IMG/VR virus record: IMGVR_UViG_3300032268_001383
Span: 34,742 to 98,741 of that record
DNA: 64,000 nucleotides
Reading direction: 5' to 3' (one strand)
Source of the DNA: a virus
Position 1 is the first letter of the stretch; each line of letters begins with the position of its first letter. The notes beneath the pieces were generated by a model. The model was not told the DNA's origin. It saw only the letters and a program-made list of their open reading frames with translations, and ran no database searches. The position numbers and the translations under genes were made by a program. Shown here piece after piece: positions 57,033-57,516 of the stretch.

Positions 57033-57321
57033 CATTTTGTTATCGTTAGGCTCTTTATCCTAACATCTTGTGATTTCTCACAAGTTCAGACTATATCTTC
57101 ATCTTTCGATGTCTGGTATTCGTGTCAGTTTGGGGTGTTCTACCTTACTACTGTTAGTCGTTGAACCTTTTTCTTATTCCTAAGAAACTCGGCTGCTGAT
57201 TATCCAATTCTTTCAATTTTTTGACATTCAAGTTTGATATTACTATCTACTTTGTAGTTTGAAAGACTCTAAGGAACTCCCAGCAATTAGCCAGATTTTT
57301 TAATGTGGAAGCAGACTATTT
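57033..57321 (-). mobile_element. group I self-splicing intron (289 nt, no ORF; probably subgroup IA)
   Basis: P AATTGCTGGGA (57278-88), Q AATCAGCAG (57193-201), R TTCAACGACTA (57155-65), S AAGATATAGTC (57089-99); P3 TCTGG/CCAGA; exon ends in U paired to IGS GCTTCCAC; terminal G; removal restores GGG|KRKGS in frame. Confidence 0.93.
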
Positions 57322-57516
57322 ACCACCACCGTTATGAACCATTCCCAAACCTTCAACAATATAATTGTGTTGGTTTTCAACTTCTAGGTCATAAACTTCA
57401 ATATCTTGTTGATTTTCAATTTCAATATCACTAACTGTATTGAAATTCAAATTTTCAATTAGTAGATTCAAATCTACCGGGTCTTCTATGTATCCTGTCG
57501 GATTGTCTGTAATCAT
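57322..57516 (-). CDS. nrdA: NrdA fragment 2, exon 1: split-intein-1 C-half (62 aa) plus GGG
   Basis: VYDLEVENQHNYIVEGLGMVHN|GGG; own ATG preceded by an A-rich leader. Confidence 0.88.

Follow-up and report, generated by a model that had tools for sequence, protein, structure and literature searches.

A conserved, probably active group I intron beside a split intein in the ribonucleotide reductase gene of huge phages

The stretch of DNA analyzed here (64,000 nt, referred to below as the window) belongs to a 98.7-kb virus record that CheckV rated 18% complete, which points to a huge phage; the nearest genomes are those of the uncultured phages LR756504 (636 kb) and LR756502 (642 kb). On its minus strand lies a class Ia nrdA gene, for the large subunit of ribonucleotide reductase (RNR), in three separately translated pieces that are interrupted by two split inteins and one intron. 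The parts of this gene are as follows, with positions given in the window.

57548-58753, minus strand: nrdA fragment 1, an N-extein followed by IntN1 and then a stop (translation; Pfam ATP-cone, Ribonuc_red_lgN, Ribonuc_red_lgC, and Hint)
58753-57881, minus strand: N-extein, amino acids 1-291, with the ATP-cone, the all-alpha domain and the start of the barrel, ending ..AVDQ
57880-57551, minus strand: IntN1, 110 aa, first residues CFTKD, followed by a stop
57331-57516, minus strand: IntC1, the 62-aa C-half of split intein 1, ending ..GLGMVHN (Pfam Intein_splicing, E 2.1e-6)
57322-57330, minus strand: three Gly codons GGT GGT GGT, the entire exon-1 C-extein and also the exon strand of P1, with the 5' splice site after U57322
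57033-57321, minus strand: group I intron of subgroup-IA type (Rfam, covariation, helix coordinates, exon ligation)
57305-57313, minus strand: internal guide sequence UGCUUCCAC, the intron strand of P1
57316-57318, minus strand: in-frame UAG in the P1 loop, at which the exon-1 ORF of unspliced RNA terminates as IntC1-GGGK
57089-57159, minus strand: P7 pseudoknot helix, in which GACUA (57159-57155) pairs with UAGUC (57093-57089)
57033-57035, minus strand: AUG made of the last three intron bases, in the frame of exon 2; G57033 is the terminal (omega) G
55665-57032, minus strand: exon 2, a C-extein followed by IntN2 and a stop (Pfam Ribonuc_red_lgC, E 1.2e-122; Intein_splicing)
57032-56004, minus strand: C-extein of exon 2, KRKG...MPTAS, 343 aa (translation)
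56003-55668, minus strand: IntN2, 112 aa, first residues CQVSS, followed by a stop
54039-55646, minus strand: free-standing homing endonuclease gene between IntN2 and IntC2 (PHROG 3339, E 5e-103; Pfam DUF7487 and REase_MTES_1575)
53280-54026, minus strand: nrdA fragment 3, consisting of IntC2 (35 aa, ending VSHN) and the C-extein TASILG... (translation, Pfam, colinearity)

At the first intein site IntC1 starts only 31 nt past the stop of fragment 1, with no endonuclease gene in between. At the second, the C-extein of fragment 3 has Thr at +1 and runs to the C-terminal Cys pair, and the intervening endonuclease (535 aa) combines DUF7487 repeats with a REase_MTES_1575-like domain. The close relative L112/L124 is without any intein 2, indicating that the invasion of site 2, or its cleaning, is recent by comparison with site 1. 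Downstream of fragment 3, at a distance of about 670 nt, is a gene for a Ro60-like protein of 481 aa (51166-52611) with TROVE and Ro60-type vWA domains (Pfam E 3.8e-17).

Strand reading and exon joining place the intron at 57321-57033 on the minus strand (289 nt, phase 0, 35% G+C). A search with group I covariance models, proposed as a check in the initial annotation, matched the entire RF00028 model (positions 1-253) to 57373-57067 on the same strand at 68.7 bits, the gathering threshold being 50 (E 2.5e-15). This is the sole Rfam match within the 64-kb window, and the nrdA intron is the one group I intron in the 98.7-kb record. Exon 1 ends with GGT GGT GGT at 57330-57322 and exon 2 opens at 57032 with AAA CGT AAA GGA, placing the insertion between the GGG and KRKG codons, 9 nt past the terminal Asn codon of IntC1. 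No stretch of the intron's sense strand is open for more than 30 aa. The initial annotation had described a complete, ORF-less group I core that interrupts GGG|KRKG 9 nt after the C-intein, and this description holds, the three Gly codons alone separating the IntC1 Asn codon from the intron; its range of 57033-57330 does contain the intron but takes in the Gly codons as well, the intron proper being 57033-57321. Both ends also read as had been noted. The intron begins AAA TAG, with a stop at 57318-57316 that closes an exon-1 ORF (57516-57316) for a free 66-aa IntC1-GGGK on unspliced mRNA, and its 3' bases are AAAATG, with an ATG (57035-57033) that shares the frame of exon 2.

The uninterrupted nrdA allele of LR756502.1 reads CAA|GGTGGTGGT|AAACGC and is identical to the joined exons at the site, for which the predicted spliced junction is GGTGGTGGT|AAACGTAAA, or in longer form GGTGGTGGT|AAACGTAAAGGA. 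When the exons are joined at U57322 and G57033 and both split inteins are taken out, the result is an NrdA of 850 aa with 78.5% identity to the 850-aa uninterrupted NrdA of LR756502, colinear with it at all three junctions, and exon ligation restores the GGGKRKG of that homolog. Intein and intron thus target the same conserved site, DQ|GGG|KR, in agreement with the earlier reading; in eukaryotic R1 structures, the DQGGGKRKG stretch corresponds to specificity loop 2.

LR756504.1 has a homologous intron at this site, with an Rfam match of 60.4 bits. Scanning IMG/VR and metagenome contigs with an alignment of IntC1 relatives brought the number of intron loci at this site to 24, of which 16 are non-identical; these are huge-phage contigs and include LR756504.1 and 14 further metagenomic copies. 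From an alignment of 14 of the introns, RNAalifold recovered a consensus with P1, P3, P4, P5 with extensions, P6, P7.1/P7.2, P8, P9, and P9.1. To this the P7 pseudoknot was added by hand; between the two strands of P7, the guanosine-binding helix, lie P7.1/P7.2, P8, and the 3' strand of P3. Standard pairs occupied 98.2% of 1076 cells (P7 included), as compared with 35-43% when the structure was slid by 1-3 columns; 40 of 77 pairs had changed on both sides, and none of 500 shuffles reached the observed values. The splice-site U.G in P1 (columns 12/26, within P1 columns 5-13 paired with 25-33) occurred in all 14 sequences, and the Rfam alignment of LR756504 likewise puts it at the three Gly codons. 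P4, P7, and the catalytic core motifs were invariant. Because of the pairing frequency, the compensatory changes and the invariant U.G, we regard the alignment as strong comparative evidence that the ribozyme is under selection for function. Taken alone, the window's intron folds into the consensus helices with z = -3.2. All 16 copies end in G and have an in-frame stop 1-6 codons inside the intron.

P1 is formed by the exon bases GUGGUGGU and the guide GCUUCCAC and uses eight of the nine Gly-codon bases, its exon strand starting exactly where the intein ends. Being made of Gly codons alone on the exon side, it implies that the intron recognizes host sequence rather than intein sequence. Mean pairwise nucleotide identity among the relatives was 78% for the intron, 70% for IntC1, and 72% for exon 2. 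The 3' tail of the intron is unpaired in the consensus structure; a P9.0-type pairing for the conserved AU before the terminal G was considered and set aside, as no consistent covariation with J7/9 was visible by eye in the 14-sequence alignment. In the window the 5' bases of the intron, AAAUAGUCUG (57311-57318), repeat 8 nt of the 3' strand of P7, AUAGUCUG (57087-57094), on the minus strand; the repeat includes the in-frame UAG and could mispair with the P7 5' strand GACUA. It is present only in the window and its closest relatives L124/L204 and is probably due to chance.

Helices 12-14 (57153-57126) correspond to P7.1/P7.2 between P7 and the 3' strand of P3, with changes on both sides in four of the six pairs (three in helix 12 and one in helix 13, the two pairs of helix 14 having none). 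The presence of P7.1/P7.2 together with the absence of P2 assigns the intron to subgroup IA. Its P3-P7 core is 70-76% identical over ~140 nt to introns in different genes of Staphylococcus, Streptococcus, Bacillus, and Listeria phages, and at least 119 IMG/VR contigs have the core motif, nearly all in other genes. By sequence and predicted structure, then, this is a member of a common phage subgroup-IA family at a new site, GGG|KRKG of nrdA; it is a real and conserved intron and probably an active one. An endonuclease ORF of its own, the mark of a mobile intron, is missing from the window's intron and present in that of one relative, L125 (L125:4178-5125), whose 948 nt hold a 206-aa ORF matching PHROG homing-endonuclease and intron-encoded-nuclease families (phrog_559, 9084, and 7140). 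This is the sole endonuclease-bearing intron among those found at the site, and it suggests homing as the route by which the family arrived. Two to three copies of the core motif fall within ~1 kb in L045:6699-7844, L114:4222-4601, and L120:9120-9518, contigs that may contain genes with several introns of the family. Further intein-intron pairs were considered where an "HNS" motif lies upstream of another intron of this core, and were rejected as unrelated proteins or chance.

Split intein 1 has the features of a class 1 intein, namely Cys1 in CFTKD..., a block B VTGEH, VYDLEVENQHNYIV, and a terminal GMVHN; its Pfam Hint and Intein_splicing matches lie below their cut-offs. The residue at +1 is Gly, in place of the Cys, Ser, or Thr nucleophile required there, and the host motif DQGGGKR offers no other nucleophile, making canonical splicing of intein 1 impossible. 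All 56 homologous small proteins related to IntC1 end in HNGGGK; the H, N, G, G, and G are invariant in 58 IntC sequences, and GGG is kept in 160 of 160 loci. The HN|GGGK(R)... junction occurs also in 124 contiguous inteins and in one 966-aa RNR (P0071). As judged from these sequences, Gly+1 inteins at DQ|GGG are a large, old RNR family and not a quirk of one phage. In bacterial intein-like domains of type A, ligation needs no +1 nucleophile: a thioester forms, Asn cyclizes, and the freed amino group attacks the thioester (PMC4031507). By analogy, this would be the most likely route at junction 1, should that junction be ligated. Term searches of PMC2677866, PMC5784728, and PMC10710043 returned no mention of a Gly+1 RNR intein. 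The Gly+1 question leaves the intron call unaffected.

The 160 loci of the DQ|GGG intein allele comprise 124 with a contiguous intein and no intron, mostly from giant-virus MAGs (GVMAG), 24 with a split intein and the intron, and six with a split intein and no intron, so that the intein occurs without the intron in 130 loci. A contiguous intein together with the intron was found at none of the 160, exon 2 not being reached in six of them, and every intron copy found at GGG|KRKG follows a split intein. A search of IMG/VR for an intron-only allele (Gln-GGG followed by the same guide sequence, a single guide-sequence pattern) gave no match, and a looser pattern gave only intein-linked copies among the 117 loci listed. 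No cultured phage of the collection carried the intein-intron module, LR756504 being the sole match. An endonuclease gene of ~300 aa lies between IntN1 and IntC1 in about half of the split loci (L126, L128, L206, L207, L214, L217, L218, and others), and P0010 of LR756504 matches PHROG endonuclease families. Pairwise divergences of IntC1, intron, and exon 2 correlate with one another (r 0.69-0.81), with r 0.81 for IntC1 and intron and r 0.75 for the host exon, which indicates that intron and split intein form an old module inherited mostly vertically with the host gene. The intron may need the split-intein context for a reason not yet seen, no intron-only allele having been found.

From the chemistry of the family, splicing would begin with the pairing of the eight exon bases with the guide to form P1, whose U.G wobble lies at the splice site; from its binding place in P7, exogenous guanosine would then attack after U57322, and the freed exon 1 would attack after the terminal G57033. 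The ligated mRNA would encode a 520-aa middle fragment, IntC1-GGG-KRKG...MPTAS-IntN2, which split intein 1 would join to fragment 1 and split intein 2 to fragment 3, yielding the 850-aa NrdA. Since the C-extein reaches IntC1 through RNA splicing alone, RNA splicing necessarily precedes protein splicing of junction 1, and the proposal of the initial annotation that the one gates the other is upheld as far as this order is concerned. The reading we favor, to which we assign a probability of roughly 0.85, is that of a functional, ORF-less, self-splicing subgroup-IA intron that is selfish, with the RNA-then-protein order as a by-product rather than a regulatory device. As a selfish element of a common phage family, it would have arrived probably by endonuclease-driven homing, because one relative still has an endonuclease gene within its intron, and would since have been co-inherited with the split intein as one module. 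The splicing order would then follow from two parasites having settled on one conserved site, and IntC1-GGGK and any product from AUG 57035 would be side products of unspliced RNA.

The initial annotation had gone further and proposed that GTP-dependent self-splicing acts as a switch on RNR assembly, the decoy IntC1-GGGK consuming fragment 1 and AUG 57035 giving a fragment that lacks IntC1. It draws on a stop (57318-57316) and an in-frame ATG (57035-57033), both of which are real. The 20 nt upstream of the 37 long ORFs of the window are 46-73% A at most positions with almost no G, a pattern that implies the absence of a Shine-Dalgarno signal and fits a Bacteroidota-type host. Against a position-weight model built from the starts of these ORFs, ATG 57035 scored at the 46th percentile of real starts, a value reached by only 5% of internal in-frame ATGs; the in-frame ATG after an A-rich leader thus does have a start-like context, near the median for this genome, and it lies in the unpaired 3' tail. 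The terminal triplet is ATG in 11 and TTG in two of the 16 introns, and CTG (in LR756504), ACG, and CAG in one each. With ATG or TTG in 13 of the 16, the triplet gives the switch some support. Retention of the ATG in 11 of 16 copies together with its context counts against pure neutrality but can be explained by common descent. On chemical grounds a decoy effect is plausible as well, an IntC half with a very short C-extein being still able to react. Against the switch, CTG, ACG, or CAG in three lineages and TTG in two imply that the product is dispensable. The 5' flank of the intron is intein coding sequence, and Rfam found no aptamer or other RNA family beside the ribozyme in the 64-kb window, in contrast to a riboswitch-controlled ribozyme. 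The intron contains no TAnnTTTG, the promoter motif used for the scan in place of sigma-70 because the starts of this genome look Bacteroidota-like, and an intron-internal promoter for separate expression of exon 2 was rejected on that ground. Six of the 30 split-intein loci do without the intron. Phage group I introns usually have an early in-frame stop, and in T4 td unspliced RNA likewise gives an exon-1 peptide, which makes the free peptide a by-product and not a design. A link between guanosine-dependent splicing and nucleotide pools is an old suggestion for T4 introns, to which the nrdA intron adds nothing, and cellular guanosine nucleotides are normally far above what group I ribozymes need. 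With the ATG absent from five of 16 introns, no aptamer, and inteins without an intron elsewhere, we consider the switch very unlikely. We judge very unlikely, too, an obligate two-tier cascade of the intron and the nucleophile-less split intein that the phage would exploit, with the fraction of spliced RNA setting the amount of full-length RNR steeply and non-linearly; in it, IntC1-GGGK made before splicing would irreversibly cap fragment 1, and the middle fragment from AUG 57035 would be unligatable. That the reactive intein half from unspliced RNA could cap fragment 1 reads as a cost and not as a function, and nothing in the sequences points to a use of the splicing order for control.

A reading compatible with the selfish-intron one, and one we hold as a tentative possibility, is that the intron hitch-hikes, or homes collaboratively, by lying within the target of the free-standing endonuclease between the intein halves; it might be copied with the split intein into empty nrdA alleles while its own genome is protected from cutting. 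The ~300-aa endonuclease gene in about half of the split loci (matched, in LR756504, by P0010), the 9 nt between the two insertion points, the failure of the IMG/VR pattern with one guide sequence to find an intron without a split intein, and the IntC1-intron correlation would fit this, and work cited by Swithers et al. (2009; PMC2814812) includes free-standing endonucleases aimed at intron insertion sites. Set against it are the 31-nt gap at site 1 of the window, where there is no endonuclease gene, the fact that the host exon diverges in parallel, a pattern that suggests mostly vertical inheritance and not recent homing, and the breadth of the intron-only search, a single guide-sequence pattern in a single collection. 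The side products might also be put to use as a fail-safe gene in pieces, IntC1-GGGK handing GGGK to fragment 1 (...AVDQGGGK) and MKRKGS... associating non-covalently to give a nicked, active RNR. Together the two products would span the whole protein with one nick in a loop, and the split NrdA of Aeh1 assembles without ligation, as described in PMC3045599; the ATG is nevertheless not conserved (11/16), the nick falls in a highly conserved loop, interaction domains like those of Aeh1 are not evident, and the proposal is inferential throughout, so that we find it barely credible. Nor is it at all probable that the intron is a decayed, non-splicing relic in a pseudogene left in pieces. The intron does lack an endonuclease gene, the gene is broken in three places, and intein 1 has no +1 nucleophile, but compensatory changes keep 98% of pairs between copies with no more than 66-80% identity in their exons, the motifs of the catalytic core do not vary, and every reading frame is intact and colinear with that of the uninterrupted homolog.

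The coincidence of an intron and an intein in phage RNR genes has been known since SPbeta, in which bnrdE, a single RNR large-subunit gene, harbors a group I intron as well as an intein (Lazarevic et al., 1998; Derbyshire and Belfort, 1998, "Lightning strikes twice"; as recounted in PMC3653736). There, as in the window, RNA splicing must come first to make the intein precursor. The SPbeta genome record (L401) places the intron at 36544-36759 and the intein from 37226, ~0.45 kb apart. The intron of SPbeta lies upstream of a contiguous intein in a class Ib gene, whereas that of the window lies 9 nt downstream of a split C-half in a class Ia gene, and the window's pair recurs as a conserved module across many huge-phage contigs. 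With the introns of T4 td, nrdB, and nrdD and of Staphylococcus, Streptococcus thermophilus, and Bacillus phages the window's intron shares the core GGUUCAACGACUA ... GAAGAUAUAGUCUGAAC and P7.1/P7.2, and with phage subgroup-IA introns the in-frame stop just inside the intron and a host gene of nucleotide metabolism. It differs from these in its new site, GGG|KRKG, in its new group of hosts, the huge-phage relatives of LR756502 and LR756504, and in an unspliced exon-1 product that would be a reactive intein half and not an inert peptide.

Introns, inteins, and endonucleases prefer the same conserved sites (Swithers et al., 2009; PMC2814812). "Fractured genes," in the account of Dassa et al. (2009; PMC2677866), are split inteins whose halves flank a free-standing homing endonuclease, a layout that occurs, in phage RNR hosts, at site 2 of the window and at site 1 of about half of its relatives but not, given the 31-nt gap, at site 1 of the window itself. 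The NrdA split inteins described in that account are at the thiyl-radical Cys site, whereas those at the window's site are at DQ|GGG, and term searches of PMC2677866 returned no intron beside a split intein. A cyanobacterial RNR gene resembles the window in combining several RNA- and protein-level intervening elements in one gene, although, as it has been described, the elements there are group II introns and contiguous inteins rather than a group I intron and split inteins. In phage Aeh1, too, nrdA is split by a mobile endonuclease and the pieces still form the enzyme (Friedrich et al., 2007; Crona et al., 2011; PMC3045599); according to these reports that assembly is non-covalent, with neither intein nor intron, whereas the window has both elements.

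The locus adds to a known phenomenon rather than opening one; its only novelty in kind is the reactive intein half that unspliced RNA would yield as a by-product. Three selfish elements, a split intein, a homing endonuclease, and a group I intron, are stacked on one 20-bp stretch of an essential gene, much more tightly than in the textbook SPbeta case, and huge phages are shown to carry the common phage intron family. A practical consequence concerns annotation: gene callers can be expected to produce a false 456-aa gene starting from the last three bases of the intron and an orphan 66-aa "intein" protein, and recognition of the intron corrects how nrdA is annotated in these phages. With its reactive intein half, the nrdA system could serve to measure the cost of incomplete RNA splicing. 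For these phages, the element is an ordinary selfish intron in an unusually tight, old, and co-inherited package with a split intein.
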